A DNA stretch of 64,000 nucleotides from a virus (IMGVR_UViG_3300044591_000896:51480-115479); one strand, 5' to 3'. Shown: positions 4,743-64,000, numbered from the stretch's first letter. The notes: a model not told the origin generated them from the sequence alone. Numbers and translations: made by a program.

Positions 4743-5371
4743 TCTTGTGACCTTCTTCTATTTAAAGACCAATCATTTGTTAATTGAAAATTGTTTTCAG
4801 CTTTAAAATCATAGTACTCTTTATTCTTTAAAAATGTTTCATCATTTCTATTTCTTAAACTTGAGTCACTATTAATAGTTTGGCTTCCTGAAGATGGCTT
4901 TGTTTTTATTGATGTTGTTACAATGGTTCCTTCTGGACAAAACCTTGAAACTCTTTCATGAAAATCATTATCCTCAAAATATATTGGATAAAAGTATTCA
5001 TCAAAAAGCCCCACCTCTTCAATAACATTTTCACCAACAGAAAAACACCCATAGGCATCATCTGTTAAAACAACTTTATCTGGCCCACTTGTCTCATCTA
5101 TTTCTTTTAAAGAGTTCTCTCCCCAAATTGTGTCAGCTGATGCAAATAGCCAATACTTTGAATGTGGGTAAAGTTTTATACCTAAATTCCATGATGCAGA
5201 CATTCCTAAATTAGCTGGCATATTTAGAACAGTTACCTTCTTGTCTGTCTTGTATCCGTTACCATTATCTATAACCAATATATTATCTACTGGGTAGTTT
5301 ATATTATCTAGCATGCTATCTAGAAGATCATACCTATTTAATGTAGGTATGATTATTACTGGTATGCTCAT
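4730..5371 (-). CDS. Glycosyltransferase family 2
   Basis: IIIPTLNR, VIDNG, NLGMSASWNLG, GLFDE...YFEDNDF motifs. Confidence 0.85.
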   Translation of the reverse strand: MSIPVIIIPTLNRYDLLDSMLDNINYPVDNILVIDNGNGYKTDKKVTVLNMPANLGMSASWNLGIKLYPHSKYWLFASADTIWGENSLKEIDETSGPDKVVLTDDAYGCFSVGENVIEEVGLFDEYFYPIYFEDNDFHERVSRFCPEGTIVTTSIKTKPSSGSQTINSDSSLRNRNDETFLKNKEYYDFKAENNFQLTNDWSLNRRRSQEWLR

Positions 5372-29403: not shown

Positions 29404-29879
29404 TATACTTCCTCCAGCGTCATTGATATTGTCCAGAAAGAATGTAATCCACGCTTTTGTAAGACTGCGGAAAATTCTGTAAACGATACTGTATATACTT
29501 CTCCTGTATTGACATTGTCTTCTGCGGCACCAGACTTTGCAAAATTTAATAGTATTCTAAATGTGCCCTTGCCCTCTTCGCTTGCATAAAATCTTCTTAG
29601 ATCTTCTGCCCCAAGGTTTCCGTCTGCCGTATGTGTTCTTGTAGTTGGTAGCATATTCCAAGACATGCTAAATGTTTTTTTATCAGCAATAAAAAATTTT
29701 CTGAGGGTTCCGTTAGCCATTCTTTGAACTTGCTGGATTCTATTTGAGCCTACAGTTATTTCTGATCTATTGTGGTCAGATATTTTTAGCCAAGTTAAAG
29801 TGGTGCCTGGTACAGTGGCAAGAACATCCTTGCCCTCTATTTGTAGCCCTACGCCTTTAGGTAATTTTGTATAACCCAT
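29403..29879 (-). CDS. Distal-tail-like protein
   Basis: Immediately after the TMP; RMANGTLR...WNMLP...TLEEV. Confidence 0.65.
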   Translation of the reverse strand: MGYTKLPKGVGLQIEGKDVLATVPGTTLTWLKISDHNRSEITVGSNRIQQVQRMANGTLRKFFIADKKTFSMSWNMLPTTRTHTADGNLGAEDLRRFYASEEGKGTFRILLNFAKSGAAEDNVNTGEVYTVSFTEFSAVLQKRGLHSFWTISMTLEEV

Positions 29880-35800: not shown

Positions 35801-38800
35801 GCCACCAGATACAGGTCCGCCCTTTTCTCTGCCCTCTAAGCCAAATATTAATTTCTTTAGCTCTTCTGTTAATGGAGTATCTTTTCTAGATTCCCAATTT
35901 GTGTATCTTCTCTTAAGAATATCTCTATCTATTGCAGATAATACTCTTCTTCCTTCTGGTGCGGAAATTGTAGAAGACGCAGCTGATCTAATGACTGAGT
36001 CCATAATGTCTGGCTCTAGTGCTTTTAATAATTGTCCTTGTGCATTTTTAGCATAGCCATATGGCATTTCTTTTGCAAGTGCTTCTGCAAACTTGTCATA
36101 AAGAATTCTTTGTGTTCTCTTTGTTAATCCGCTAGAAGCAAATAGCTTTTCTGCCATTCCTATTTCTAGTGATGTTACTCCCCATCCGCCAGTTGTATTC
36201 TTGCCAAACCCTGCACCAATTCTACGCATAGCAAGAGATTTAATAACATTGATTAATCCACCGCCATTAAATCCATTAGCATCAGATTTAAATGCCATAT
36301 CACTTAGGCTTACAGCGTGGCCTTTTTGTCTTGCTCTTAATGCTGCAGCTTCTTCTAATTTAGCAAGCGCTGCTGGTGTTAATGATTTTGGAGCTGTTGG
36401 TTTGACTGCTGAATGTATGCCATGAAACTCTTTCCAGTTTACATGCCTTGCATCTTCAAGTCTTTTTATCATTGCAGCATAAACTTCTTCTTCTCTTGGA
36501 GTTAGACCTTTAAAGCCAGCAATTGTTTCTTTTAGTCTAGGAAGGACTTCATCAATTTCATTAAGCATCGATTGCTGATATTGCTGAGGGGTCATTCCTC
36601 TTGGAATGTCTACTGTTGATTCTGCAAAAAATCTCTTTGCTCCGCCCTTTACGCCAAGTAAATTAATTCTTGCTTGTTCTGCAACTGATGGCATATCGTC
36701 TGCATATGATCTTAAACCAGAAGCTGTTTTAAATACACCCATAGTTCCGCCGTCTGCAACAAAACTTCCTCCAATGTTGCCAGGTGATAAGTCTTTATCT
36801 CCTCTTAATGCTGATGCAAGTAACTGCTGGAAGTACTCCTGCTCTGACATTTCTTTTGGTAAGCTTGCAAATCTTGGATCATAAGGTGATTCAAGAACAA
36901 GAAGCTTTCTTTTACCTGCTGGATCTGTTGGGTCTATCATTACCCTTATTTCCTGCTGAGGAGGTGTTAATCTATGTGCGCCTTGGTGTATTGCATTATA
37001 TCTTTGCTCAGCAAGTGCAGCAGTTTCATCAAGGACTGGCTTAACAAATACTCTTGTTCCATCTGGCTTTGTGTATACTCCGCCCACTCCTTCAACTGGG
37101 AAGCTGTGTCCTTTTGTATCTTCTTCTTTCTTTCCAAAGTTAGTTGGTTCTTCTTTTGCAAAACGACTCTTGTTAACTGCTTCTGTCGTCTGCTCCATAA
37201 CCTCTCTACGTTTTCTTTGCTCTTGAACCTGCTTAATTGATTTAGGCATTCCAAGGAATAATCTTCCATAGTTAGCTTTTCTCTTTTTAATGATTCCGCC
37301 CATTGCAAAGCCATCAAGCATCATATGAGCAAATGCTCCATCTTCACCATTAATCTTTAGTTCTTTAGGATTATATGTTTCATAAGAGCCCATAAAGTTT
37401 GTACCAAACTCTTCATTTTTTGTTATTAAAGTATCAAGATCAGATGTTCTATATGGACTTATTGCTGTTGCACCCTGAAATCCAGAGGAGTGGTTTCCTG
37501 GATCTTTGAACCCTCTTCTCTGCCCAGGTACATTTAAAGAATCAATATATCTTTTTCTTAGCCCTAGCTGATCTGCTATTTTAAGGTACTCTGCGTGTTG
37601 AGCTTGTGCAAATAGTCTTTCTCCAATAAGCGAGTCTCCATGTGATGCAAGATTTGATACGATACCGTCTCTTGCCTCTAGCACAAGTCTATCAGCCAAC
37701 TCGTCATCTATTTTATTTACTTTTAAAAATCTTCTTAGTGCTGGTAGTGCCTCTGAAGGGGGAAGGAACATTATGTCATCTATTATTTCTTGTGGCTTAG
37801 CTGTCCCCGCATTTATCTTTGAATTTGTTGTTTTTCTAGTATTCAGTCCCCAGTTTCCAACAAAGAAGTATCCATTTTTATTTCCAAGAACTCCTCTTCT
37901 TGGTGCAGCAGCTCCAAATACGCCTTCAACATAATCATGAGCATCATCTGCGTCAGTTCTATGCTCTCTTCCAAGCCTTATTTGTGGCGAAAGGTTTGCT
38001 AAATCATCTGCTGACTTTGCTTTCTTTCTTTTAAACAAACTCTTTAATGCATCAAATCTTCCATAGTTGTGCTTGCCAGAAACAATTGGTCCGCCTAAGA
38101 TTCCGCCTGCATTTCTAAATTGAATTCTTTGTCCGTTATTTGCTGCCTCTAGTATAGGCAACATCTCTTGTGTTTGTTCTGGTGTAAATACTGTCTCATA
38201 TGGAGTCAGCATTGCATCAATCATTCCGCCACGGTTATATGGCTTACTCTTTTTTGCATATTCCACTAGCTGTGGATTATTTCTTGTTGCATCTTGATTT
38301 AATACAAAACCACCAACTGGTATTTTTGCCATTGTGTTGTCATAGTTTACACTCTTGTCACCAGGTACAACTGGGCCATCTTCTAATGTGTATACATATC
38401 CACCATCATTAAAGCCTCTAAGTGGACCTCTCTTTGGAAGAATAATTCTTGGCTTAGTTGTTTCTATGCTGTATCCGCCGCCAGAAGTTCTAACACCTAA
38501 TCCTTCTGCAACCTTATCGACAAGAGCTGCTGTCTCTGGCTTATGGAACATTTCTTTCATGTTGGACTTGCCAGTTACTGGATCAACCACTGGCTGGCTA
38601 GTAAATGGTACTGTAGTTAGATTTATTCCTCTTCCCATACCAGCGGCAACCTGTGCAGCTGTTTCTGCCATCATAACTTCAATGGTTGCATTTAATGAAA
38701 TAATTTTTGCTCTTGCTTGATCTACAGTGATTACACCTTGCTGTAGCTGTCTTACAATCATAGCTCCTTCATCTGCAGCCAATTGTGTGAGCTGTTGCAT

Positions 38801-50367: not shown

Positions 50368-52182
50368 CTATGAGTTCTGGAGAACCACCCAGTCATTATC
50401 ATAGTACTCTACAGAACTTTCGGTCATTCCGATGCCAGAATCATAGACTACTGCAGTTGCTCTGCCTATATACAATGAATAATTATATAAACATTCAGAT
50501 ACATTAAACTGCTTCTCATACAGGGTTATATTTTGATACAGAGACTTTGGGCCAGAACCATTAAACTCTATATCTCCAGATACTGGTGTTCTTAGTACGA
50601 CTAGAATATGATACATATTGCCAGGCTCAAAAACCGTTGATATATTTGAATCAAATATCTTACTTACTCCATTGACATAGAATCTCAAAATGTTACTTCC
50701 TATGCTTATTTGACCTGAGCTATTCCATGAAATTCCGTCAACAATGGATCCCGCAATTCTGGAGTTTGGGGTATAAAACATTTCTATCGTATTTATTTGG
50801 CTGGAGGTGTTGATGAAGAATCCTGAACCAGCCTCTACATTTACTCCGCTTCTTGAGTCTCTAGTCAAAATAGGATATCTTCTATTACCAATTCCAATAT
50901 TGTTATCTCCTGGATATAGGTAGTCTTGAGAATTGTTTGAATACTCTTTATTGTCGGCATACATTTTAACTATGAGATACTCTAAAGATGGTATATATCT
51001 AGATGTATCTTCAGATGTAAATACTATTTTAATGTAAAGCTTTCTTGATTCACTAAAGTCTGTTGAGGTATATTTAGGTATCACTGAGTTGTTTTCACAC
51101 GGCTCAAATGCTATTCCGTCTGTACTTGAAAATACTGTTATTCCATTGTCTCCCGCCCATTCTATTTTTGAAGAAGTTGGAGAAAGAGAGTATGGGATAT
51201 ATATCATGTCTACTATTTCAACAACAGAGTTTTCTGCAGTATCTGTTTTAGATATAGAAAGTGTTTTTTTAGATGTGTTGTGATCAAGACCATCTACTAA
51301 TATATCTGACCAATCTTTATCTACTGGGTATCTAAAAACAAAATCTGTCATATAGTTACTGTCATTGATTTCAAAAGCTTTTCCATTTAATGGACCATAG
51401 ACATCTAAAGGTCTTGTTGATACTGCATTTAAATAATGGTTTTTAATTTTAACATCTGTTAGTGCGTATCTGTATATCGCTAGGCCATTTACTAAAAAGT
51501 AGTTGCTGCTATTTTCAGTTGGCCCGCATAGCAAAGACAAATTAGAATTTGTAAATTTAAAGTTTTCAATGTCTATCGATGAAACCAATTCTCCATCTAC
51601 ATAAAGCATTGCGGAGTCTTTGTTGTACACTGCAGCTAGGTAGTAAGCCTTCTTTTTGTATGGCAAAGTATATTCAATAGTATTTGTATTTAGCTTAAAA
51701 AGAATATTGCCTTTATGATAGAACAATCCTACGCTATTTAATGAATCTCCAATTAATGGTATTGGGTCAGACTCTAAAGCATTGATTGAAGGGTATATAA
51801 AAATTTCAAAAGAAAATGTATTATCAGAGAATGTATCTTTTGCAAATCCGCCTTTAACAATTTCTCCGTTGTATCCTCTTGCATTATTTATATTAATAGA
51901 TGCAACGCTATCTATTTTTATTGCATATGGGTCACCGTATACTAAAGGTATAATATCTGACTTTACTTCTCCTGAATAGAATCCGTTATTTTGGCAACCA
52001 GAAATATCGACAACTGCATTTCCAGAGTCTAATGAGTAGTTCGCAAATGCAGCTTTAAATTCCTCATATGTATTATAATCATTCAATACATCTTGGTAAG
52101 ACGGAATGCTAAATGCTTCTGTTATTGCACCGCTATAATATACTATTGGGTTGTCTGCTAAGACAGAGTATTTATATGACAT
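50368..52182 (-). CDS. LamG/concanavalin-like domain virion protein
   Basis: VLADNPIVYY, FSFEIF, LAAVY...LYVDGEL, LAIYRYALT...IKNHY. Confidence 0.7.
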   Translation of the reverse strand: MSYKYSVLADNPIVYYSGAITEAFSIPSYQDVLNDYNTYEEFKAAFANYSLDSGNAVVDISGCQNNGFYSGEVKSDIIPLVYGDPYAIKIDSVASININNARGYNGEIVKGGFAKDTFSDNTFSFEIFIYPSINALESDPIPLIGDSLNSVGLFYHKGNILFKLNTNTIEYTLPYKKKAYYLAAVYNKDSAMLYVDGELVSSIDIENFKFTNSNLSLLCGPTENSSNYFLVNGLAIYRYALTDVKIKNHYLNAVSTRPLDVYGPLNGKAFEINDSNYMTDFVFRYPVDKDWSDILVDGLDHNTSKKTLSISKTDTAENSVVEIVDMIYIPYSLSPTSSKIEWAGDNGITVFSSTDGIAFEPCENNSVIPKYTSTDFSESRKLYIKIVFTSEDTSRYIPSLEYLIVKMYADNKEYSNNSQDYLYPGDNNIGIGNRRYPILTRDSRSGVNVEAGSGFFINTSSQINTIEMFYTPNSRIAGSIVDGISWNSSGQISIGSNILRFYVNGVSKIFDSNISTVFEPGNMYHILVVLRTPVSGDIEFNGSGPKSLYQNITLYEKQFNVSECLYNYSLYIGRATAVVYDSGIGMTESSVEYYDNDWVVLQNS

Positions 52183-52184
52183 AA

Positions 52185-53165
52185 TTACCCCTGTTCTAGT
52201 TGTGCAACTCTTGTAGATAATTCCTGTACGGCTTTAATAAGTGGAGCAATAAACTGCTCATACCTTAATGCTTGACTTTGATCTTCTTTCAGAATCCATC
52301 CGCCAAAATCTTCTGCCCCAGATCCATCTACTGCTGCTTTAACTTCTTGAGCTATCAATCCATAATGAACTCTTTCGCCAGCAACTGGTGTTTCAATCTG
52401 ATTGCCTTCTGGGTCAAATGTAGTTACGGTATCGCCAACTATGTATTTATATTTTACTGGGTTTAGAGAATTAATAAAATTTAATCCTAAATCAGAAGAC
52501 TCTATCTCTGTTTTTAAATTTAAGTCTGAGGGTGTAATTAAAGATGCAGCATATACTGAGCCTTGGAAGAATCCCCTCTTCCAATTCTTTGCAACTGGTA
52601 TTCCAGAAAATACATCAATCTCTTGACCTAAATCAAAAAAGTTATTTGATGATGGGTACCAATTTGAATTAACTCCATATGCAGAAGATGTTGCTAAGTT
52701 TAAACTTATTCTATTGTCTAGCGGATCAATGTTTGCATTTTGTCCTGGTGGGCCCTGGGGTCCAGTAGCACCAGTTGCTCCGTCTGCGCCTCTTGGAATT
52801 GTAAAATTAAGCTTTACATCAGATGATGTTCCAGAGTTTGTAACATTTGCATTTGTTCCAGCAGCACCTGTCGCTGTTGATTCTACAGCTACTGTTGCAG
52901 CTGCGTCACCTTTGTCACCTTTTGGACCTGCGGGCCCCTGCACACCCTGCTCACCCTGCGGTCCAGTTGCGCCAGTCAATCCCTGGGGACCTTGCGGTCC
53001 TTGCGCTCCTGTGGCTCCTGTGGGGCCTGCGGGCCCTACAGGGCCTGGGTGTGCGTCTAAGTACTGGTCAATGTCCAAAGCAAGCTGAGAGATATCCCTA
53101 GGTACGTCAGGGGTATCTGTGTAGTCTGGGTAACTAAAGTCTTTTGCGTTTGGTACAGTAGCCAT
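52185..53165 (-). CDS. Collagen-like fibre with S74 intramolecular chaperone
   Basis: 16 consecutive Gly-X-Y triplets plus a shorter run; SDLNLKTEI...HYGLIAQEV...LIKAVQEL. Confidence 0.88.
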
Positions 53166-53171
53166 TTTTTA

Positions 53172-53180
53172 ATTATACCA
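53172..53180 (-). promoter_or_regulatory. Extended -10 leaderless promoter (TGGTATAAT)
   Basis: 6 nt before ATG 53165. Confidence 0.65.
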
Positions 53181-53186
53181 CCTAAA

Positions 53187-53789
53187 TTACCAAAGCCAAA
53201 AGCCTGGGCACATATACTTTGTGCCAGATATTAACTTTTTAGATTGGTGCAGATATGGTTCTGAAGATGGGAATATAACTATACTTCCAGCTTGAGGCTT
53301 TATAGTAACGTTTTGATTTGGAAAGGCTAACTCTCCGCCTTCATAATCATCGTTTAAATATGAAACAATAGAGTATCTTAATCTTGCATCTCCGTCATTT
53401 TGATCAGCATGTGGACCCATTTCTGTTCCAACATTATACTTTTTAATAGCAGAGTCGGTATCAATTTTTACATCGCCCTCTACATTATTATATTGCTTAT
53501 ATAATGAAGCGCAGAATTTCATATTTGCAATAACGCTATTAATTATATAAAGCTCTTTTGGAGAAGGCTCTTTACCAATTTTTTCATAATTAGCATCAAT
53601 CATTTTTGCATAGCCATATACAGTATCTGAATCATTGCTTGCTGTCCATGGCTTCCATTTAGATATAAATGCAGTGTCAATTGAATCGTCATCCTCTGAC
53701 TGCTCTATAAGATCTATTAATCTGCTAGGCTCAGAAATTGAATTAGTAAAATAAAATATGTTTGGTGCTAATTGGTGAAACTCGTACAT
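53187..53789 (-). CDS. 2OG-Fe(II) oxygenase, prolyl 4-hydroxylase-like
   Basis: HAD, YLNDDYEGGE, distal H, GTKY. Confidence 0.9.
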   Translation of the reverse strand: MYEFHQLAPNIFYFTNSISEPSRLIDLIEQSEDDDSIDTAFISKWKPWTASNDSDTVYGYAKMIDANYEKIGKEPSPKELYIINSVIANMKFCASLYKQYNNVEGDVKIDTDSAIKKYNVGTEMGPHADQNDGDARLRYSIVSYLNDDYEGGELAFPNQNVTIKPQAGSIVIFPSSEPYLHQSKKLISGTKYMCPGFWLW

Positions 53790-53790
53790 T

Positions 53791-54507
53791 TCAATCTCCT
53801 ATAAACTCGGTTCCAGTAAACCAAAATGATGGACACATGTATTTGTGTCCACTTTTAACTAAATGTGCTGTGTGGCTGTAAGGTGATGAAGAAGGAAATA
53901 GTATTGCACTTCCAGCCTCTGGCTTTATAGAAACTGTTACCTTACCTACATTTTCTTTTGCAAGGAAGTCTGGGTGTGGCTTATCTTCATGTTCAACTAC
54001 TCCGTCTTTAATGGTAAATGATATTTCTCCACCCTCGTATTTATCATTTAAATATAACACTACAGAGTATCTTAGCCTTTCATCTCCTTCTTGCTGATCA
54101 AAGTGCCCACCCATAAAAGTTCCAGCATCGTACTTGTTAATTCCGACATCTGGATACATATTTAATGGATCTTCTATTTTATAAAACTCTCTGTAAGCTT
54201 CAAATGAATTTCTAAAGGCTGAGCTTATAGTACCAAATATGTAAGAGAATTTATCTAGCGTATCTTCATCTATTAACTTTGATAGCTCACCAGACTTATA
54301 GTTTTTCCAGTGGTCTGAGTTTATGTTTTTGTTTGTACCATAAACATACATCTCTCCGCTACAAGCTTCCCAAGATTTCCATTTTGGAATCAAGGTAGTC
54401 ATTTTTTCATTATCTTCTGTTTTTTCAATTGCAGAAATTAAATCTTCATGATTATCAATTAGTCCTGTTACATAAAGTATTCCATCGTGCAGTTCTACTA
54501 CATTCAT
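53791..54507 (-). CDS. 2OG-Fe(II) oxygenase, prolyl 4-hydroxylase-like
   Basis: HFD, YLNDKYEGGE, distal H, GHKY. Confidence 0.9.
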   Translation of the reverse strand: MNVVELHDGILYVTGLIDNHEDLISAIEKTEDNEKMTTLIPKWKSWEACSGEMYVYGTNKNINSDHWKNYKSGELSKLIDEDTLDKFSYIFGTISSAFRNSFEAYREFYKIEDPLNMYPDVGINKYDAGTFMGGHFDQQEGDERLRYSVVLYLNDKYEGGEISFTIKDGVVEHEDKPHPDFLAKENVGKVTVSIKPEAGSAILFPSSSPYSHTAHLVKSGHKYMCPSFWFTGTEFIGD

Positions 54508-55262
54508 GATATCTCCCCCGATAATTCTTTTGCTGGCCTGCTTGATACACCTGGGCCAGGAAGAAGTCTTTCTCCACGGTCTCTCATTTCAGCCCACTCT
54601 TCAGCATCTTTTGCTTGCTGTAGTCTTGCTTCTGCGATTTCCGTTTCCCATCTAGCTCTTGTTTCATCACTATATTCTATCTCTTCGAAATCCCAAAATG
54701 ATCCAACTGTATACCTTGTGCCCTTTTCTATTGGTAAAACTTCGTGTATATTGTGATGACCACCCTCAAATGCTGCGAGAAGTCCTTTTCTTGGCTTTAT
54801 TGTTATCTCATGATCTCTAAAGTTAAGTTCTCCACCTTCAAAGTCATCGTTAAGATAAAGGAATGATGCCATTTTACTTCTTTCAAAAGCATTATACTCT
54901 GGGCTGTCTAGTGGAGTATTATCTGAATGGAATCCAGCAAATGCACCTTCTATCCATTTTTGTGAGTGGTAGCTAACTTTTCTAAGTGGTCCACCTCTTG
55001 TATCTTCTGTGGCAGCCTTAATGCCAGCCTCTAAATCTGTAAAGAAATTTGCTGGTAATCCAAACTTAAACATATCGTCATCTTCTGGTAAGTTTGAAGA
55101 GAATGACTCGTAAAAAGAAATTGGTCCCCAAATAAGAGTACCCTTTTCTGTTGAGTGATCCCAATACTTTAATATAGCATCACAGTGTTCTGGTGATATA
55201 AAGTTTTCGTACAGTACTACATCGCTCTTTAAAACCTTCTTGCCATCAAGATTATATATCAT
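54504..55262 (-). CDS. 2OG-Fe(II) oxygenase, prolyl 4-hydroxylase-like
   Basis: HSD, YLNDDFEGGE, HEV...GTRY. Confidence 0.9.
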   Translation of the reverse strand: MIYNLDGKKVLKSDVVLYENFISPEHCDAILKYWDHSTEKGTLIWGPISFYESFSSNLPEDDDMFKFGLPANFFTDLEAGIKAATEDTRGGPLRKVSYHSQKWIEGAFAGFHSDNTPLDSPEYNAFERSKMASFLYLNDDFEGGELNFRDHEITIKPRKGLLAAFEGGHHNIHEVLPIEKGTRYTVGSFWDFEEIEYSDETRARWETEIAEARLQQAKDAEEWAEMRDRGERLLPGPGVSSRPAKELSGEIS

Positions 55263-56100
55263 TTAGTCTTCTCGCTTTCGATACGTCTTGTCGATTTATC
55301 TGTTGATAAACTCCGTTTGCCCTGTCTCTTTTCCATCTTTCTCTTTCCATCTCTGCCCAAATTTCTTCTCCATAAAGCTGCTGGTTTTTTATCCACTCTT
55401 CAGTGCCTTCATGAAATCTAAGCATATTGTTTCTGATAAAGTACTTTGGCTTACCCGTAATTTTTCTAACTCCGTGATGGTATAACTCATCACCATCTGT
55501 TAAGAAATTAGGATCTCCTGCTGGGAAAACAATTACATCTCCAGCTTTTGGCTTATAGTAAAATAGCTTATCGTTTATGTAAAAATCAACTCCGCCGCCT
55601 TCGTAGTCATCATTTAAATACATAGTTACGGTTACCGCAAAATTATATCCTCTAGCGTCTCTTTTTTCTACCTGGTAGTCTGTGTGATAGTGCATTGCAA
55701 GATCTAGTGCTACTTCTGCTTCTTCATTATATTTGCATATAGAAGGGCCCATTTTTATCCATTTGTTTTTTGTTCTACCATCAACTTCATCAACAAATGA
55801 TTCAAATGAGTATTCAACATTATTTTTCTTAAAATAGTCATCAACTACTGTAAAAAATACTCCTTCTATTTCTGCTAGAACTTCTCTTTCTTTTATAACC
55901 CTTGGAGTATCTTCTGCATCACGAATAAAGTTATCTGCCTCTAAACCAAACGTATACCAATCTTCCCAAGGGTAAATCATTGAGCCTTCAGGATTTACCT
56001 CTGACTCTATTATTGTATTTAAAAATGAGTCTAGGTCTCTGAAGGGGTTAGAATAAACAAAAACTTTTGGATAAATTTCTCTGTACTGAAGTTCACTCAC
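55252..56100 (-). CDS. 2OG-Fe(II) oxygenase, prolyl 4-hydroxylase-like
   Basis: HTD, YLNDDYEGG, HGV...KPKY. Confidence 0.9.
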   Translation of the reverse strand: MSELQYREIYPKVFVYSNPFRDLDSFLNTIIESEVNPEGSMIYPWEDWYTFGLEADNFIRDAEDTPRVIKEREVLAEIEGVFFTVVDDYFKKNNVEYSFESFVDEVDGRTKNKWIKMGPSICKYNEEAEVALDLAMHYHTDYQVEKRDARGYNFAVTVTMYLNDDYEGGGVDFYINDKLFYYKPKAGDVIVFPAGDPNFLTDGDELYHHGVRKITGKPKYFIRNNMLRFHEGTEEWIKNQQLYGEEIWAEMERERWKRDRANGVYQQINRQDVSKARRLNDI

Positions 56101-56786
56101 GGCTGCTTTTCTCCTGTATGTTTTAATATATTCCAGAAAAATGGTGATGTATATCTATTACCAGATAAGACTGGCCTTACTCCGTGAACGTAATTTCTAT
56201 CTCCTGGGAAGAAGTAAGCTGATCCAGCATTTGGTTTAAATTCAATTCCTTGTATTGGAAAGAATAGTTCTCCGCCTTCGTAATCATCATTAAAATAAAA
56301 TATTGATGCAATGTCGTAATGTGGAAAATCATTAGGCGTTCCAGCATCTGGGCCTTCGTGAAGTTCTTTATCTGCATGAGGATCTTGTCTAGTTCCAACT
56401 GGCCATCTTACGATAGCTGGGCCCGTTGCCTGTACGTCTACATCAAAAAATTTATCTACTTCTTTTTTAAGTCTAACAATTAGTCCTTCAACAACAGTTA
56501 CAATTGAAGGGTCATGAGATATATCCATGGACTTTCTGGTACATACTCTGTCTGCCCATACATTTGCATCATATATAACTGTGCCGTTTTCATTAAAATG
56601 TGACTCTGTTATATCCCATGTCTTGTTACTAAATGCAAAATCAGTTAATCTTTGCTTTTCTGCTTCTGTTAAAAAGTTTTTTAACTCAACAATATTGTCT
56701 GTTGAATCACCAAAAAAACCAGAAGGCGTAATTGATGTAAGCTCTTTGTAATTATGCTCTTTGTTTGTATTTACTTGCTTTTGCAT
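56097..56786 (-). CDS. 2OG-Fe(II) oxygenase, prolyl 4-hydroxylase-like
   Basis: HAD, YFNDDYEGGE, HGV...GNRY; AGGAGA RBS before ATG 56786. Confidence 0.9.
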   Translation of the reverse strand: MQKQVNTNKEHNYKELTSITPSGFFGDSTDNIVELKNFLTEAEKQRLTDFAFSNKTWDITESHFNENGTVIYDANVWADRVCTRKSMDISHDPSIVTVVEGLIVRLKKEVDKFFDVDVQATGPAIVRWPVGTRQDPHADKELHEGPDAGTPNDFPHYDIASIFYFNDDYEGGELFFPIQGIEFKPNAGSAYFFPGDRNYVHGVRPVLSGNRYTSPFFWNILKHTGEKQP

Positions 56787-56794
56787 TTTTTCTC

Positions 56795-57544
56795 CTATTG
56801 GTATTTTCTTTTTGACCAAAACTTCTTTTTATAGACTCCACCATCTGGTGATCTAAATGTATTAGCTGTCTCCATATGCTTTTGTAAAATCTCTTCTGCC
56901 GTCCTAAAAACCAAGTCTGATTCCCAGTCTTCTCTTTTGAAAGGAATTATTTGCATATACGGTGTGCCTGCTGGCACTACGCCTGTAAAACCTTTTTGCA
57001 AGAAAAACGGGATAAGACCTGAGTTAGTTACCTTATCACTATCTATTATACCAGCCACTGTTAAAAATGGTAAATCAAATCTATTAACTGGGGATAGGTA
57101 GATTGCGCTATATCCTTCTGGAAGGACTGGTGCCCAATTTGCATACCAATGAAAATGATCATCGTCATATCCTGCTGGTGTTACAAATCCCTCCATCTTT
57201 GCTCTTTCTCCAACAAAGTCTTCAAAACCAATATCTGTTTTAACCTTTGTTCTGCCACGCTTTTCATAAAACTCAATATCGCATGGAGTAAGTAGAGCAT
57301 ATCCTGTTGTAAATATATCAAGTATTGCTGGGCAAGACTTATAGGACATTACCTTTGATATTCCATCTGGATTTACATAAGGTACTCCATTTGGATCTTT
57401 AATATAAATACTTGCATCTTGCCACCATTTTGCAAGTGATTTGCTCATAGGAGATGGTGAATGAGTGCCATCCTTCTTATTATAAATTTTATTAGAATGA
57501 AATGTTATTTTATTTGTCACTGCAGGCCACTGGCTTTCCGTCAT
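56795..57544 (-). CDS. DUF6065-related protein
   Basis: KSCPAILD...GY...PCD; PEGYS...P.NR; GIIDSD; GTPYMQIIPF. Confidence 0.6.
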   Translation of the reverse strand: MTESQWPAVTNKITFHSNKIYNKKDGTHSPSPMSKSLAKWWQDASIYIKDPNGVPYVNPDGISKVMSYKSCPAILDIFTTGYALLTPCDIEFYEKRGRTKVKTDIGFEDFVGERAKMEGFVTPAGYDDDHFHWYANWAPVLPEGYSAIYLSPVNRFDLPFLTVAGIIDSDKVTNSGLIPFFLQKGFTGVVPAGTPYMQIIPFKREDWESDLVFRTAEEILQKHMETANTFRSPDGGVYKKKFWSKRKYQ

Positions 57545-58232
57545 TAACTTTTAATCTTAAGGCTTTTATTTCGTGATCACCTATTTTATTACCATAATGA
57601 TCTACGCCATCTCTATAGAAATTTGTCCATTTGCCAGCCTTATTTATTTCATAAACAATATCTCCATATTTATCATCTGGGAAAAACCCTGGAGGCAATT
57701 CAAACATATCACGAACTACTGCTTCTGAGTTGTTTAGTTCTTGTAATGATATTGGCATTATGGATATTACTGGTGTGCCAGCCTTAATAGTAATTACTGT
57801 ATCTGGTCTAGTAATTCTCCATGCTACTGGAAATTCACCCTTAAAAAATGAAGTTGATATGACTCCAGTAAATGGGTGTGCTCCGTCTATAAATTGATTA
57901 GGGACGGGCATTCCCATTATGCTGAGGTTCTCTTCGGTTCTAAACAGCAAACCAGTATTAAAGCTTATGGTTGCATTTCCTCTTGTGTTATGTGCGTACT
58001 TTTCTCCTGAAAGAATCTTTACATGATCTGATTCTGAATTAGAAATACCATCCCATATAAAGCTAATATCCTCTGGAAAAGATATCCCCCAACCAAGAGC
58101 ATTTGAAAGACTTACTGGAAAGCATTTATATGCATGCGCCTCATAAGTTTCGTCCATCCAGGATCTTTTTATTCCTAGCGGCTCAAGCTTTCCATAGTTT
58201 GCTCTTGTTTGGTAGACATCAAATTTGTGCAT
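57510..58232 (-). CDS. DUF6065 family protein
   Basis: RSWMD...HAYKCFPV..SN..GW...P.DI...WDG; GTPVISIMP. Confidence 0.7.
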   Translation of the reverse strand: MHKFDVYQTRANYGKLEPLGIKRSWMDETYEAHAYKCFPVSLSNALGWGISFPEDISFIWDGISNSESDHVKILSGEKYAHNTRGNATISFNTGLLFRTEENLSIMGMPVPNQFIDGAHPFTGVISTSFFKGEFPVAWRITRPDTVITIKAGTPVISIMPISLQELNNSEAVVRDMFELPPGFFPDDKYGDIVYEINKAGKWTNFYRDGVDHYGNKIGDHEIKALRLKVNDGKPVACSDK

Positions 58233-58909
58233 TAGTACTCACTATCTTTTAATGAAAGATTTGTAGCATGTTGCTTATAAAATTCTGGCGAATGTGCAGA
58301 ATCATTATAGTCAGTCATTGTTACTAAGGAATACTTTGTTCCAGTTAGAACTGGCATTGCTCTATGTGAAAATAGATACGTTGATGGGAAAATAAATAAG
58401 TCTCCAGCATTTGGTTTTACCTCAATGCCAAGTTTTCCAAAACTTAATCCGCCGCCCTCGTAATCATCATTTAAGTATCCAACCATTGAAACTGTAGCAA
58501 TATATGACCAGCCGTGGTCAGCATGCTCAGCAAAGTGTTGTCCTGGGCCATACTTGATAAAGTTCATAGCTTCCCAATACTTCATATCAATATTGTAAAA
58601 CTTTGAATAGTCATCTAATGCAACTTTTTGAGCGTCATAAAGATCTTGCCAAACACTATCAAATTCAAGCATGAACTCATCTTTGCCTGGGTAATCCATC
58701 TTTTTTAATTTAAAATCGTAACAATCACGATACTCTGGAATTTTTTCTCTATAGCCTACAGTGGCTTCTTTCCAGTTATGCAGTCCATTGCTTGCCTTTA
58801 GAGTATTTTCAACTCTTTCAATGGCATTGATTTCTGGCTTCAATACGTCACGGTATAGCCATAATCCAGGAAACAATTCTTCTTTTGAAGAGTATCCAAT
58901 ATTTGACAT
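58232..58909 (-). CDS. 2OG-Fe(II) oxygenase, prolyl 4-hydroxylase-like
   Basis: HAD, YLNDDYEGG, HRAMPV..GTKY. Confidence 0.9.
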   Translation of the reverse strand: MSNIGYSSKEELFPGLWLYRDVLKPEINAIERVENTLKASNGLHNWKEATVGYREKIPEYRDCYDFKLKKMDYPGKDEFMLEFDSVWQDLYDAQKVALDDYSKFYNIDMKYWEAMNFIKYGPGQHFAEHADHGWSYIATVSMVGYLNDDYEGGGLSFGKLGIEVKPNAGDLFIFPSTYLFSHRAMPVLTGTKYSLVTMTDYNDSAHSPEFYKQHATNLSLKDSEY

Positions 58910-58953
58910 CAATTACTTCTTTCTATTATTATCTAAATTAATAAAAAATTAAT

Positions 58954-59346
58954 TTAGCTCCAAGCACTTCCAGTTTCTGGTAGGGTTTCAGAAGTTACTG
59001 GGTAAACTGATACACCTTCAGCTGCAGCCTTTATAAATGCCTGTACTGTTCCTGTGCTTACATACATAACTCTTTTTATATAAAATATTTTATTGTCAGA
59101 GATAAAAGCAAATCTGTGCTGTCCTTCTACAATGTGTGCTGGTTCACTGTCATCATGAGTAAAAGATGTTCCATCCCATGTTGAGCCAATTCTTGCCTCT
59201 TCATTATCTGTTATATCAATAATGCCAGTTGTATTATCAAATCCCGCTTTTTTTCTAGGATATGAGGAAGCTTCTGGATCTAATGTAACTGTTCCTAGAA
59301 CAATATTATCTGAAACAAAAACGTATGAATTTTCTATAATTGCCAT
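58954..59346 (-). CDS. Hypothetical protein with internal duplication
   Basis: YVFVSDNIV...IGSTW and FAFISDNKI...TGSAW halves; AGGAGA RBS. Confidence 0.7.
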   Translation of the reverse strand: MAIIENSYVFVSDNIVLGTVTLDPEASSYPRKKAGFDNTTGIIDITDNEEARIGSTWDGTSFTHDDSEPAHIVEGQHRFAFISDNKIFYIKRVMYVSTGTVQAFIKAAAEGVSVYPVTSETLPETGSAWS

Positions 59347-59364
59347 TTTTTTCTCCTGTCAATA

Positions 59365-59373
59365 ATTATATCA
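59365..59373 (-). promoter_or_regulatory. Extended -10 promoter (TGATATAAT) heading the oxygenase operon
   Basis: Consensus motif immediately downstream of a hairpin and upstream of an RBS. Confidence 0.65.
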
Positions 59374-59405
59374 TTTAAGTGGGGCTGTTGCCAGCCCCAC
59401 TTAAA
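59374..59405 (-). terminator. Perfect 14-bp hairpin after the PPxF-repeat gene
   Basis: TTTAAGTGGGGCTG-GCAA-CAGCCCCACTTAAA (GNRA loop); weak U tract. Confidence 0.7.
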
Positions 59406-59411
59406 CTTAAT

Positions 59412-60314
59412 TTAGTATCTGAATCCGAACCGTGGTGGTGCGAAGTACGGTGGGAAGTATGGTGGTGAGAACCCGAAGAACGGATATCCTCCAAAGTACG
59501 GTGGGAAGTATGGTGGTGAGAACCCGAAGTACGGTGGGAAGAATGGTGGGAAGTGTGGTGGGAAGAATGGTGGGAAGTGTGGTGGGAAGAATGGTGGGAA
59601 GAATGGTGGGAAGTACGGTGGGAAGAATGGTGGGAAGTGTGGTGGGAAGAATGGTGGGAAGAATGGTGGGAAGTGTGGTGGGAAGAATGGTGGGAAGAAT
59701 GGTGGGAAGTGAGGTGGCGTAAAGGTTGTAACCTGATTAGTACCTACTCCTGCTGATGTTCCGTTTGCATTTAATGCATAAACTGTATAACTTTGTGTCG
59801 TATTACCTGTCTCTGATATATCTTTAGGAGATACAGAGTTTACGTAAGATGGACCATCTGAAGAAACTATAGTATAGCTTGATACTGCTTTTCCTCCATC
59901 TGCTAATGGGGCATCCCATGTAACTCGGTCAGTGTTATTAGCAGGTGTTGTAGCAACTGCATTTCTTGGTGCTGAAGGAACTGTTGTTGCCGTAACGGTT
60001 GTTGTTGTAGGCAAAGAGCTTCCTGCTGCGTTGCTTGCAATAACTGTAAATACATAAGAGGTGTTAGAAGCTAATCCTGTAAATGTATGTGAAGTTGTTG
60101 CTGAAGTTTGGGTTGTTGTGACTGGTGTAGTCGTTATAGTATATAGAGTTGCTGGTGGAGATGCGGCTGGCAGTGACCATGTAAGGTTTACTGCTCCGTC
60201 GTTGTATGGACGGTTTGTGCCCACATCAGATCCAGTAAGGCTAGTTACTGCATTTGGCTCTAGGAAGTTATCTTGCGCTGAAGACTTAATTCCTTTTCTT
60301 TTACTTGTTGCCAT
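59412..60314 (-). CDS. FN3-domain protein with C-terminal PP-x-F repeats
   Basis: Two FN3 domains ([19 protein letters not shown]; VPSAP...WDAP..DGG...[10 protein letters not shown]), then about 100 aa of PP(F/H/Y/R)F. Confidence 0.85.
59526..59717 (-). repeat. 16 tandem 12-bp units encoding [12 protein letters not shown]
   Basis: Directly visible; five further PPxF units lie in 59427-59516. Confidence 0.97.
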
Positions 60315-60332: not shown

Positions 60333-62528
60333 TTACGCAGTCAAATCGCCCATGAGAACCCAAGTATTAGCTGCTCTCTTGAATAATGTTGCTGATGACC
60401 AACGTGCTCTTAATGTTAAGCCTGGTGTTGCATTTACTGTTGTTCCAGAAGTTGCAATTGTTACAGCTCCTGTGTTTGTTCTTAATATATCAATAGATGT
60501 TCCTACTGGGTATGTTATGCCGTTTGTGCCATCTGCAGTAACTGTAATTGTGACTGCTGATCCACCTGTGTGGTTTACTTCTAGCATTTGATCTCTGTAG
60601 TTTGCATCTGTTATATTAAATGCTGCTGTCTTTTCAACAATTGATGTTAGTGAAGGAACTCCTTGCTTTGTCTGTGTTCCATCTGTAAAGACTACTCCAG
60701 CTGCTGTTAAGTTGTTTACAGCAAGGTCATCAAGTGATCCTTGTGTGAAATCAACTGTTGTTGATGGCTCTGTGGTTACACCCTTGAATAATTTCCAAGA
60801 ATCTGCAGATACATCTCTTACTATACCTGAGTGCTTTGCTGCTCCGTCATTATAGCCAACTACAAGACCTAGGTCTACTGTGTTTCCAGCATTTTGGTGA
60901 GCAAGCTGTACTAGGTTATCTTCAATTGTAATAGATGTTGCTGATGCGTTAAATGTTGTACCATTTACAGTAAGGTTACCCTGAACTGTTAGTGCTCCGT
61001 CTAATGTTGTAGACTGTGCATCTGTTGTTACAAGCTTTGATGTATCAGCAATTCCGTGAACTGATGTTGTAGCGTTATTATGTGATGACACTGCAGATGA
61101 TGCTGTTCCAGCTGCATCGTAATTTGACGCTAATCCATCTGCATAGTTTTCTGATGCTACTGCTGCAGCATCAATTGCTTCTGATTTAGCTGTAGCTACC
61201 TGCGCCGTTGTTGCAAGAAGTGATGTATCTGCAATTCCATGTACAGATGTTGTATCTAATGTGTGTGTTGAAACTGCTGCGTCTGCGTATGCCTTTGTTG
61301 CAAGATCTGCAGTGTTTGCAATTCCGTGAACATTTGTCTCATCTGCTGCGTGGGCTGTTAAATCCCCTGCATCTGCTTTTAGATCTAATGCTGTTTGTGT
61401 AGCGGTTGAAATTGGCTTTGCTGCGTCTGATGTGTCATCTACGTTAGAAAGACCAACCATTCCCTTAGTTATTCCGCCAACTGTACCAGTAAATACTGGT
61501 GAGGCTAGTGGTGCTTTTGCATCTAACTGAGCTTGTACGTTAGATGTAACACTGTTTAGGTATCCAATTTCAGTATTTGATACATCGCCAATTGATGTTG
61601 TTGCTGGCAATGTTATTGAACCTGTGAAGATTGCGCCTTCTGTAGGAGCTTTGCTATCTAGCTGAACCTGTATGGCAGATGTTACTCCATTTACATATCC
61701 AATTTCAGTATTTGAAACATCTCCAATAGATGTTGTTGCTGGAAGTGTTACTGATCCTGTAAATATAGGTCCTGATAGAGGAGCTTTAGCATCTAACTGT
61801 ACTTGTATGTTTGATGTTACTCCATTTACATATCCAATTTCAGCTTCTGAAACGTTTCCAATTGTTGTTGTTGAAGGAAGAACAACTCCTCCAGTAAATG
61901 TTGGTGAATTTAGTGGAGCTTTAGTATCTATTGCTGTTAGTGCTCCTTCTACAACAGAGGCATCAGCCTTTGCTGTTAATGCTGTTGCAACTGTAGATGC
62001 AAAGTTAGCGTCGTCGCCAAGAGCATCTGAAAGTTCACTCAAAGTATTCAAAACTGCTGGTGCTGCACCAACAAGTTGAGCAAATGCTTGATCTGTGTAT
62101 GACTCTGCATACATCTTTGTTGCCATGATTGATGTGTCTGCTGTTAATGTAATTGTATTAGCTACATCGTCATATACTTTTGAAACACCTGTTCCAGCTG
62201 TTATTGCTGTATTTACAGCATCTTGTGAAAGTTCTGTTATATCTAATTGAGCTGCTGGTACTTTACCTGAGCTATTAAGTGAAGCTACACCATTAGGCTG
62301 TCCAAGTAGGTTATCTTCAAGATAAGCACCTACTCTATTCTCTAAATCAGATAATGGTTCATTTGCGTAAGGAAGTGCATTCCATGCTGTGCTTCCAGTT
62401 CCAAACTTAAAATAATTTGTGTCGGACTCAAGTCCAACTTCTCCTGCTGCTAGAATTGGGTTAACTAGAGCCCATTGAGCTTCTGTTCCTCTTCTTACTT
62501 GAATTCTTACTGTTGACATATTTGCCAC
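60333..62528 (-). CDS. Fibre protein with Mtd-N-like N-terminus
   Basis: IQVRRGT..QW...NPILAAGE.G.E.DT..FKFG.G...WN.LPY; APAVLNTLSELSDALGDD; three HGIA(D/N)T repeats; C-terminal WVLMGDL domain. Confidence 0.8.
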   Translation of the reverse strand: MANMSTVRIQVRRGTEAQWALVNPILAAGEVGLESDTNYFKFGTGSTAWNALPYANEPLSDLENRVGAYLEDNLLGQPNGVASLNSSGKVPAAQLDITELSQDAVNTAITAGTGVSKVYDDVANTITLTADTSIMATKMYAESYTDQAFAQLVGAAPAVLNTLSELSDALGDDANFASTVATALTAKADASVVEGALTAIDTKAPLNSPTFTGGVVLPSTTTIGNVSEAEIGYVNGVTSNIQVQLDAKAPLSGPIFTGSVTLPATTSIGDVSNTEIGYVNGVTSAIQVQLDSKAPTEGAIFTGSITLPATTSIGDVSNTEIGYLNSVTSNVQAQLDAKAPLASPVFTGTVGGITKGMVGLSNVDDTSDAAKPISTATQTALDLKADAGDLTAHAADETNVHGIANTADLATKAYADAAVSTHTLDTTSVHGIADTSLLATTAQVATAKSEAIDAAAVASENYADGLASNYDAAGTASSAVSSHNNATTSVHGIADTSKLVTTDAQSTTLDGALTVQGNLTVNGTTFNASATSITIEDNLVQLAHQNAGNTVDLGLVVGYNDGAAKHSGIVRDVSADSWKLFKGVTTEPSTTVDFTQGSLDDLAVNNLTAAGVVFTDGTQTKQGVPSLTSIVEKTAAFNITDANYRDQMLEVNHTGGSAVTITVTADGTNGITYPVGTSIDILRTNTGAVTIATSGTTVNATPGLTLRARWSSATLFKRAANTWVLMGDLTA
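61490..61925 (-). repeat. Degenerate 135-bp (45-aa) repeats, about 3.3 copies
   Basis: KAP...P.FTG.V.LP.TT.IG.VS..EIGY.N.VTS..Q.QLD repeated. Confidence 0.9.
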
Positions 62529-63040: not shown

Positions 63041-64000
63041 TTATGCCTTAAAAACTGTACCAGCTACAGTAATTGTTGAATCGTTTACTGGATTTACTCT
63101 GATTCGGCAATGAGTTGCATCTACATCTGCTGTAATTGTTCCTCTTGAACCATTTGTTCCAACGATTGCGTATTCTGTAATTGCTACGTTGCCAGATGAA
63201 TCTAATGTTACTAGAATTTCTGAGATTTCATTGTGTGTTCCGTTGTCAATTTTAACCAAGAACTTACCTGATTTAAATGTTGACTTATTGAACTGGTATG
63301 CTGTTACTACAACTGAACCTAGAGAAGTTACTCTAGCTGCTACCTGCTTTGCAACATCATTAATATTGAGATCTGTAAATGGTGTTGTTCCATCTAGAAC
63401 ATCGTCTAGTGCTGCCTGGGCAGTGGCTTCTGCTGCTGCTTGAGCGGCGTTAGCCTTTGAAGTAGAGTCTGCTGATGCAGTGGCTTCTGCTGCTGCTTGA
63501 GCGGCGTTAGCCTTTGAAGTAGCGTCTGCTGCTGCAGTGGCTTCTGCTGCTGCTTGAGCGGCGTTAGCCTTTGAAGTAGCGTCTGCTGCTGCAGTGGCTT
63601 CTGCTGCTGCTTGAGCGGCGTTAGCCTTTGAAGTAGCGTCTGCTGCTGCAGTTGAAACCGCTGTTGCGATGTCTGTTGTAACATCAGATGAGTTAGCTTT
63701 TGTTGCTAATGCTGATGTGAGGGTTGTTGCGTAATTAGCGTCATCGTTAATTGCTGCTGCTAATTCATTTAATGTATTAAGAAGTGATGGTGCACCATCT
63801 ACTAATGAATCTACTGCAGTTGAAATTGCTGTATTACGATTTGAAACTTCTGTTGATATTGCAGATGAAAGAGCTGCTGCTGCAGTGGCTTCTGCTGCTG
63901 CTTGAGCGGCGTTAGCCTTTGAAGTAGCGTCTGCTGCTGCAGTGGCTTCTGCTGCTGCTTGAGCGGCGTTAGCCTTTGAAGTAGCGTCTGCTGCTGCAGT
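63041..64000 (-). CDS. Long fibre protein, C-terminal part (start outside window)
   Basis: Frame appears open from the window edge to 63041; LVDGAPSLLNTLNELAAAINDD fibre motif; Ala-rich repeats; beta-rich C-terminal domain. Confidence 0.85.
   Translation of the reverse strand, partial: TAAADATSKANAAQAAAEATAAADATSKANAAQAAAEATAAAALSSAISTEVSNRNTAISTAVDSLVDGAPSLLNTLNELAAAINDDANYATTLTSALATKANSSDVTTDIATAVSTAAADATSKANAAQAAAEATAAADATSKANAAQAAAEATAAADATSKANAAQAAAEATASADSTSKANAAQAAAEATAQAALDDVLDGTTPFTDLNINDVAKQVAARVTSLGSVVVTAYQFNKSTFKSGKFLVKIDNGTHNEISEILVTLDSSGNVAITEYAIVGTNGSRGTITADVDATHCRIRVNPVNDSTITVAGTVFKA
63425..64000 (-). repeat. 57-bp near-identical repeats (TAAADATSKANAAQAAAEA), 4 + 2 copies
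   Basis: Units at 63425-63652 (four) and 63887-64000 (two); only the unit at 63425 differs, by 2 nt. Confidence 0.97.

Follow-up and report, generated by a model that had tools for sequence, protein, structure and literature searches.

The DNA analysed here, the window, is a stretch of 64,000 nucleotides that forms the final 64 kb of a complete, 115,479-bp virus record in IMG/VR (IMGVR_UViG_3300044591_000896:51480-115479), the ends of which repeat. It belongs to an uncultured lake phage and carries a compact block of nine genes, encoding six oxygenases of the prolyl 4-hydroxylase (P4H) type, which use 2-oxoglutarate (2OG) and Fe(II), and two DUF6065 proteins. The block lies directly behind a gene whose product ends in a repetitive PPxF tail, and this arrangement recurs in related phages. 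The recurrent link suggests, short of proof, that the fibres of this phage are chemically modified by enzymes that it encodes. We propose that the enzymes of the block hydroxylate Pro-rich segments in the fibres of the phage itself, above all the PPxF stalks, and that DUF6065 assists the oxygenases; we hold this reading tentatively, as a plausible one that stops a little short of probable. The nine open reading frames (ORFs) lie on the minus strand from 59346 to 53187, with gaps of at most 41 nt or short overlaps between them, so that the tight packing and all of the coordinates given in an earlier, sequence-only reading hold. The genes and the candidate substrates on either side are as follows.

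59412-60314, minus: 300-aa FN3 protein with a PPxF tail, candidate substrate, directly upstream of the block (fn3 5.5e-13)
59494-59710: 12-bp tandem repeat coding for the PPxF units (Tandem Repeats Finder, period 12, 14.8-18.3 copies, 80-87% match)
58954-59346, minus: 130-aa protein, first gene of the block (phrog_14370 at 2e-5 only; kept in the closest relatives only)
58232-58912, minus: OxyA, P4H-type 2OG/Fe(II) oxygenase, Lys at +10 (PF13640 8.6e-13)
57510-58232, minus: DUF6065 protein with predicted dUTPase-like fold (PF19541 1.8e-34, 119.8 bits against a 26.6-bit cut-off)
56795-57544, minus: divergent DUF6065-like paralogue (phrog_7084, shared with the DUF6065 gene)
56097-56819, minus: OxyB, P4H-type oxygenase, Arg at +10 (PF13640 3.2e-8)
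55252-56100, minus: OxyC, P4H-type oxygenase, Lys at +10 (PF13640 1.7e-7; triad in the alignment of six)
54504-55262, minus: OxyD, P4H-type oxygenase, Arg at +10, charged C-terminal extension (PF13640 5.7e-10)
53791-54507, minus: OxyE, P4H-type oxygenase, Lys at +10 (PF13640 9e-14; in some relatives only)
53187-53789, minus: OxyF, P4H-type oxygenase, Lys at +10 (PF13640 3.9e-13)
52185-53165, minus: collagen-like fibre with a C-terminal S74 intramolecular chaperone, second candidate substrate (PF01391 3.5e-11; PF13884, Peptidase_S74, 5.4e-11)

All six oxygenases pass the 27-bit Pfam threshold of PF13640 (E 1.7e-7 to 9e-14, 32.6-52.7 bits), at pairwise identities of 21-27%. In a joint alignment all six keep the His-x-Asp motif, the distal His and a basic residue at +10 (invariant H130, D132 and H183 in OxyA numbering), the last being Lys in OxyA, OxyC, OxyE and OxyF and Arg in OxyB and OxyD. 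The sequence-only reading, which had described six divergent 2OG-Fe(II) oxygenases with intact HxD...H triads and a Lys/Arg split of four to two, was thus correct on each count. Against the PDB, a profile of OxyA orthologues finds the Bacillus anthracis P4H first (6.5e-7), then PiuC, vCPH of Paramecium bursaria chlorella virus 1 (PBCV-1) and LH3. OxyB is the sole oxygenase modelled, and Foldseek matches of its AlphaFold model (pLDDT 83) are headed by PBCV-1 vCPH (1.8e-11) and include bacterial and algal P4Hs, among them B. anthracis P4H and the CrP4H-(Ser-Pro)5 complex, together with P3H1, PHD2 and C-P4H-II. The double-stranded beta-helix fold predicted for OxyB is closest to prolyl/lysyl hydroxylases, with VIA Z values of 14.6-16.2 tied across P3H1, PHD2, vCPH (15.5), PPHD and LH3. 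Nearly all of the top solved relatives of OxyA and OxyB are protein prolyl or lysyl hydroxylases. Taken together, the profile matches (OxyA) and the fold matches (OxyB) identify the oxygenases as prolyl/lysyl-hydroxylase-like by sequence and predicted fold, as had been read. The true start of OxyB is probably Met12 (56786), because this residue is invariant among the aligned OxyB orthologues. The nearest homologues in cultured phages are cyanomyovirus oxygenases, at 26-40% identity.

The protein encoded directly upstream of the block has a C-terminal tail of exactly 21 PP(F/H/Y/R)F units, a count made earlier and confirmed here by translation; 16 of the units are contiguous and the tail ends in GFRY. 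The best tandem-repeat call within the tail has 14.8 copies, an 87% match and a score of 284. A second PPxF protein, of 792 aa, is encoded on the minus strand of the same genome outside the window (G000:C1:1358-3736). Its N-terminal part differs from that of the 300-aa protein, its tail is alike, and both proteins end in PPRFGFRY. Among the plausible-gene ORFs of the genome these two alone have more than 15% Pro or at least three PPx[FY] units. A shared C-terminal end is likewise found when the two PPxF proteins of a relative are compared with each other, and suggests a common partner or common processing, as well as concerted evolution of the tail module. PP and F are invariant among relatives and x is free (F, S, G, Y, H, V, T and others), and unit number ranges from 21 to 26 among relatives whose DUF6065 protein is 85-100% identical. 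The PPxF stretch is C-terminal in some phages and forms an interdomain stalk in others.

The link between this stretch and the oxygenases was seen from both directions, in line with the co-occurrence for which the sequence-only reading had proposed a test. At the 80 loci found by way of DUF6065, a PPxF gene lies directly upstream of the array wherever the contig reaches that far, and the conserved order is fibre, PPxF protein, OxyA, DUF6065 (one to three copies), OxyB, OxyC, OxyD, OxyE (in some), OxyF, the collagen-like gene (in some), a lectin-like gene and portal. IMG/VR was also scanned with a four-unit PPxF DNA pattern alone, counting PPxF ORFs with at least 3 kb downstream; P4H or DUF6065 genes were found within 3 kb of 29 of the 39. 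The loci of this second set vary in arrangement and copy number (1-11 oxygenases), and their orthologues, including DUF6065, are 26-65% identical to those of the window. The linkage of PPxF and oxygenase genes therefore survives rearrangement, change in copy number and divergence. Some relatives have larger arrays than the window (L123, L128, L113 and G407, the contig of L125), L123 having seven consecutive OxyB-like genes, and one 34.6-kb fragment of a related phage holds eleven PF13640 matches.

The two DUF6065-like proteins had also been recognised before. One matches PF19541 directly; the other, at 56795-57544, has no Pfam match and is assigned through phrog_7084, which is common to both genes (E 4.5e-30 and 4.3e-8), and through alignment at about 17% identity, in which it keeps the Cys and Asn of the family. 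The AlphaFold2 model of DUF6065 (pLDDT 87) aligns over 103-130 residues with 14 dUTPase or dUTPase-like chains at VIA Z 8.3-11.3, among them herpesvirus pp71 (8.9), with ORF10 next at 7.4. A Foldseek search of the PDB likewise returns a dUTPase (E 6e-5, probability 1.00), and a search of viral models agrees. The predicted fold of DUF6065 is dUTPase-like. By sequence, and despite the fold, this protein is not a dUTPase: it has no match to the dUTPase family (PF00692) at E <= 0.01 and the five dUTPase motifs (I-V) are unrecognisable; its best PDB sequence match is the dUTPase of white spot syndrome virus, at E 0.11. The near-invariant residues of the DUF6065 family, Cys37, Asn112 and His220, differ from the dUTPase motifs and might, judging from their conservation, form an active site.

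The predicted fold bears on the possibility that dUTPase-fold proteins and 2OG oxygenases act together on DNA bases or deoxynucleotides, as in the hypermodification of phage DNA. Some of the oxygenases do carry weak, sub-threshold Tet_JBP and PHROG 'endonuclease' labels, and DNA repair was suggested for the cyanophage enzymes by Weigele et al. (cited in PMC3037559). However, the Tet_JBP label reaches 18.5 bits against a cut-off of 34.9, the oxygenases group with P4H, PHD and LH enzymes rather than with AlkB or TET, DUF6065 lacks the dUTPase signatures, and the block sits in the structural gene region, distant from the polymerase and helicase genes. We therefore regard modification of nucleic acids or nucleotides as highly improbable.

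Evidence on the partners of DUF6065 comes from outside the phage lineage. A search of 1.84 billion representatives returned 1,096 relatives, and 20 long forms were scanned against Pfam for fused domains. A Cupin_8/JmjC oxygenase is fused to DUF6065 in 3 of the 20 and a PF13640 oxygenase in 2; a sulfotransferase (Stf0/Sulfotransfer_1) is found in 3, and NTP_transf_5, SapC and TPR repeats in 1 each (fused bacterial forms: P0191, P0197, P0211, P0239, P0263, P0199, P0251, P0254, P0208, P0241, P0244). The fused bacterial PF13640 domains are closest to OxyB, at 31-42% identity, and in the bacterial oxygenase fusions DUF6065 is N-terminal and the oxygenase C-terminal, which matches the gene order DUF6065 to OxyB of most relatives. 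Because these fusions lie outside the phage lineage, they are independent evidence for a joint action of DUF6065 and 2OG oxygenases, in which DUF6065 may be a substrate-binding or accessory subunit. A complex prediction with the OxyB and DUF6065 alignments scored 0.00, a result that gives no verdict and counts neither for nor against binding.

Bacterial genomes add little to this picture. A metagenome scan with one fused bacterial protein returned no loci, and 80 loci from a second scan, made with an alignment (A6), show no recurrent neighbour, the 89 neighbours falling into 80 families, each seen at most twice. One genuine bacterial-genome copy (L086) is flanked by respiratory and housekeeping genes. 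Of 401 genomes sampled across the phylum of the metagenome-assembled genome (MAG) that holds L083, only 2 have DUF6065. One is G003, in which the gene sits on L083 itself, a short contig that the phage query had found. A scan of genome contigs returned three short MAG contigs only, which are probably mis-binned phage. In the ESM Atlas only DUF6065 clusters were found, and a literature search on DUF6065 gave nothing relevant.

We propose the following mechanism. The block would be a late-expressed protein-tailoring module, in which the six prolyl-hydroxylase-type oxygenases and the two DUF6065 accessory proteins act together to hydroxylate Pro-rich, low-complexity segments of fibre or decoration proteins during their synthesis in the cytoplasm. 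The prime substrates would be the (PPxF)n stalks of the 300-aa FN3 protein and of the 792-aa protein, with the collagen-like fibre as a secondary one. That the PPxF stretch is the substrate, and proline the modified residue, is our inference. The collagen-like nature of the downstream gene, noted before, is confirmed by its match to the Collagen family of Gly-X-Y triple-helix repeats. As sole substrate this fibre was considered and rejected, since its gene is missing from relatives (L006-L012 and L073) that keep the oxygenases.

Several observations weigh against the proposed mechanism. Ten of the 39 PPxF ORFs have no adjacent oxygenase; nine of these could be searched: in five, 2-11 PF13640 genes lie at another place on the contig, and the other four are fragments of 8-31%. 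All of the phages may belong to one broad family of lake phages of about 110 kb, so that the co-occurrence counts are not independent events, and adjacency may merely reflect inheritance of one fibre module within one family. Arrays of related enzymes occur in cyanophages without PPxF partners. In the collagen-like protein Pro is confined to the X position of G-X-Y, and the absence of its gene from some oxygenase-bearing relatives counts here as well. Five to six conserved paralogues exceed the need of two prolines, and their number is independent of the diversity at x. Fusions of DUF6065 to sulfotransferases, a nucleotidyltransferase and SapC could indicate substrates other than proteins. Finally, the fold does not discriminate between substrates: PiuC and EF-Tu hydroxylases score level with collagen P4Hs.

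The last of these points leads to an unlikely alternative, in which the oxygenases hydroxylate other proteins, either of the host (EF-Tu, ribosomal proteins, regulators) or of the virion, and neighbour PPxF genes only by way of the variable fibre region. The EF-Tu prolyl hydroxylase PPHD, and PHD2, match at the same Z as collagen P4Hs; six distinct, conserved orthologue groups fit several different target proteins; and outside the block lie another two PF13640 genes and two of JmjC_2, the family of the ribosomal-protein hydroxylases. Genes for host takeover are, however, usually early, whereas this block is embedded among structural genes, and such targets would not explain why the linkage to PPxF genes is so tight, reaches so deep and resists rearrangement.

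The DUF6065 fusions bear on a different class of substrate. The block could act on a small molecule or glycan (of the envelope or a polysaccharide, or a metabolite), or mainly consume 2OG, which has been put forward for the 2OG oxygenases of cyanophages, with DUF6065 as a ligand-binding or catalytic partner. The sulfotransferase (3 of 20), NTP_transf_5 and SapC fusions are consistent with this, as are the near-invariant Cys37, Asn112 and His220, the GT4 and GT2 glycosyltransferases encoded in the genome, and the link drawn between the multi-copy 2OG oxygenases of cyanomyoviruses and 2OG and nitrogen status (PMC3037559). Yet the top matches of the oxygenases are protein hydroxylases, except for PiuC (iron uptake factor C) and one unnamed putative oxygenase; the block contains no biosynthetic genes; and the scattered bacterial DUF6065 neighbourhoods (80 families among 89 neighbours) show no pathway. 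We consider a non-protein substrate decidedly unlikely.

The relatives bear on how the paralogues might share the work on the PPxF stalk. The sequence-only reading had the paralogues dividing up repeat positions (first Pro, second Pro, His, Phe/Tyr) and expected their number to track repeat diversity. No such correlation is found: entropy at x and oxygenase number give a rho of 0.04, and relatives with only S, G or V at x keep five paralogues, so that a division of labour is unsupported. The His/Tyr content at x rises with the number of oxygenases (rho 0.58) and of DUF6065 copies (rho 0.70), the additional OxyE and DUF6065 copies being involved; judged from identity levels, a single clade probably accounts for this signal, which lacks phylogenetic independence. 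Two further analogies drawn at that stage did not hold. The candidate substrates are multidomain structural proteins of 300 and 792 aa, not the leader-core peptides expected of a cluster for ribosomally synthesised and post-translationally modified peptides (RiPPs), and a Pfam scan of the block found no RiPP recognition element, protease or transporter. An extensin-like system is likewise not indicated, the repeat being PPxF rather than Ser-Pro(3-5) and the block containing no glycosyltransferase.

Many relatives have, behind the PPxF stretch, a Cys and then a Hint-like domain of 156-170 aa, giving the architecture FN3-(PPxF)n-Hint (examples are L036:7931-9211, L059:6749-8083 and L021:4128-5450, with about 20 other related loci). 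A profile of this domain finds 2lwy, the solved structure of a bacterial intein-like domain (1.8e-9), and inteins (6e-5 to 5e-4); the domain has an N-terminal C-[LI]-x-x-D-T motif and an invariant Cys8, and most copies end in HN, VN, YN or RN. From its sequence, this architecture would imply autoprocessing at the end of the PPxF stalk in the relatives that bear it. The PPxF proteins of other relatives end in short Cys-rich knots or in R-x-Y, like the GFRY of the window, and the two proteins of the window's own genome have no Hint domain. A wider scheme can be drawn for the lake-phage family, in which 5-11 hydroxylases and DUF6065 would heavily hydroxylate the (PPxF)n stalk and, in many members, the Hint domain would then auto-process or ligate the fibre; as a whole we find it doubtful.

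The stretch between the PPxF gene and the block was read as holding its promoter, and contains the following elements.

59374-59405, minus: intergenic hairpin with a 14-bp stem, between the PPxF gene and the block
59365-59405 region, minus: extended -10-like element TGATATAAT (TGnTATAAT type) after the hairpin, then AGGAG, then ATG

The promoter placed at 59365 stands in so far as an extended -10 of the TGnTATAAT type does follow the hairpin and precede AGGAG. Promoter-like sites in the region are, however, no commoner than in shuffled sequence (35 against 33.7), and the promoter is therefore putative only; the hairpin and the TGnTATAAT element are compatible with a promoter of the block. Metatranscriptome contigs from four freshwater, estuary and river libraries match parts of 52137-59076, some with 0-2 differences (for example 53675-53997, 54121-54415 and 56086-56274); DNA carry-over is possible in such libraries, and the matches are accordingly not used as proof of expression.

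The genome (GC content about 38%) is that of a tailed phage by its portal, protease/scaffold and capsid genes, and its major capsid protein shares 61% identity with the corresponding proteins of large Streptomyces siphophages. Near-identical DNA also occurs in lake-water metagenomes, in at least eleven other records dated 2020 and 2024, none of them flagged as a possible source. The block shares its strand with the fibre, portal and capsid genes and sits inside their region. Other features of the window are listed below.

60333-62528, minus: 731-aa fibre-like protein, upstream of the PPxF gene, with 135-bp internal repeats (Mtd_N 9.4e-13)
50368-52182, minus: 604-aa protein with a ConA-like lectin domain, between the collagen-like and portal genes, syntenic in relatives (Laminin_G_3 2.7e-8)
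29879-41158, minus: single ORF of 3,759 aa in the tail region, presumably an exceptionally long tape-measure protein
4730-5371, minus: 213-aa ORF, GT2 (Glycos_transf_2, 26 bits, barely above the cut-off)

Within the 731-aa Mtd_N fibre gene the 135-bp tandem units lie at 61506-61930. At 63420-64000 a 57-bp tandem unit of 98-100% identity encodes an Ala-rich motif, in a fibre gene that continues past the end of the window. Elsewhere in the same genome, G000:C1:10308-15412 (minus) holds two JmjC_2 genes, a seventh PF13640 gene and a GT4 glycosyltransferase gene upstream of fibre genes, and an eighth PF13640 gene lies near G000:C1:34.7 kb. The whole 115-kb genome thus has ten genes of the 2OG-oxygenase superfamily.

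Among the unexplained genes of aquatic phages, multi-copy 2OG/Fe(II) oxygenases are some of the most common. Their occurrence here as a contiguous array, linked to (PPxF)n as a defined and simple candidate substrate that can be synthesised, makes the question of their function testable. DUF6065 gains a predicted dUTPase-like fold and, in the hydroxylases, a recurrent class of partner, and a new fibre architecture, FN3-(PPxF)n-Hint, is indicated. If hydroxylation were confirmed, this would be the first enzymatic hydroxylation system for bacteriophage virion proteins, a topic on which a search of the literature for phage virion hydroxyproline found nothing relevant, and a source of hydroxylases for Pro-rich biomaterials. 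If the wider scheme with the Hint domain is true, phages would have an extensin- or mussel-adhesive-like adhesin built post-translationally, and the long-unexplained 2OG oxygenase arrays of aquatic phages would be assigned a function.

Among known systems, T4-like cyanomyoviruses carry multi-copy 2OG-Fe(II) oxygenases of unassigned function in 14 of 16 genomes (PMC3037559). As in the window, a single genome has several P4H-family paralogues, and fibre genes are often close by. In the cyanophages these paralogues are scattered, whereas here they lie in one contiguous block of nine genes. The cyanophage literature proposes 2OG/nitrogen signalling or DNA repair rather than fibre modification, the former in PMC3037559 and the latter through the passage there that cites Weigele et al. 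Searches of 50,697 phage records by megablast and tblastn found no match to the block, to a PPxF-tailed protein or to DUF6065, with the proviso that the low-complexity filter may mask PPxF matches. The nearest oxygenase homologue lies in an unrelated cyanomyovirus, Synechococcus phage ACG-2014f (L207, NC_026927.1 13505-25064), in a row of genes for a collagen triple-helix repeat protein, two hypothetical proteins, a glycosyltransferase, the 2OG-Fe(II) oxygenase, a small ORF and a tail fibre. From its gene content this is a possible parallel cassette for fibre modification; its glycosyltransferase has no homologue in the genome studied here.

Plant and algal P4Hs that act on extensin-type glycoproteins, such as CrP4H (PDB 3gze), share the P4H fold and a repetitive, polyproline-II-prone structural substrate containing Pro and aromatic residues. 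Extensins differ in having Ser-Pro(3-5) repeats whose hydroxyproline is O-glycosylated by dedicated transferases, whereas the repeat here is PPxF and GT4 and GT2 genes lie only outside the block. Plant and algal P4Hs occur as several paralogues that differ in site preference (PMC11252719). The animal collagen hydroxylases (C-P4H, P3H1/CRTAP/PPIB and LH3) belong to the same fold class as OxyB and work with non-catalytic partner subunits, and a collagen-like gene flanks the block. Their partners are PDI, CRTAP or a cyclophilin, whereas the candidate partner here is a dUTPase-fold protein, and the collagen-like protein here has Pro in the X position only. DUF6065 shares its predicted fold with trimeric dUTPases and with the non-catalytic herpesvirus proteins pp71 and ORF10, to which it adds a C-terminal helical region and its own Cys37, Asn112 and His220. 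The likeness to the bacterial intein-like (BIL)/Hint domains of variable surface proteins (PDB 2lwy) is confined to the PPxF proteins of relatives, those of the window's genome ending in GFRY.

Of the systems that have been characterised, the nearest precedent is the pairing of the chlorovirus P4H with Pro-rich repeat proteins of the same virus. PBCV-1 vCPH (PDB 5c5t), the best Foldseek match of OxyB, is likewise a P4H-type oxygenase encoded by a virus. It hydroxylates proline in Pro-rich repeat peptides that resemble those encoded by PBCV-1 itself. The precedent consists of one enzyme, in a eukaryotic virus, with a PAPK-type repeat, whereas the system proposed here comprises six paralogues and DUF6065 in a tailed phage, with a PPxF repeat. 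Its array, DUF6065 partner, PPxF repeat and Hint-terminated variants are new.

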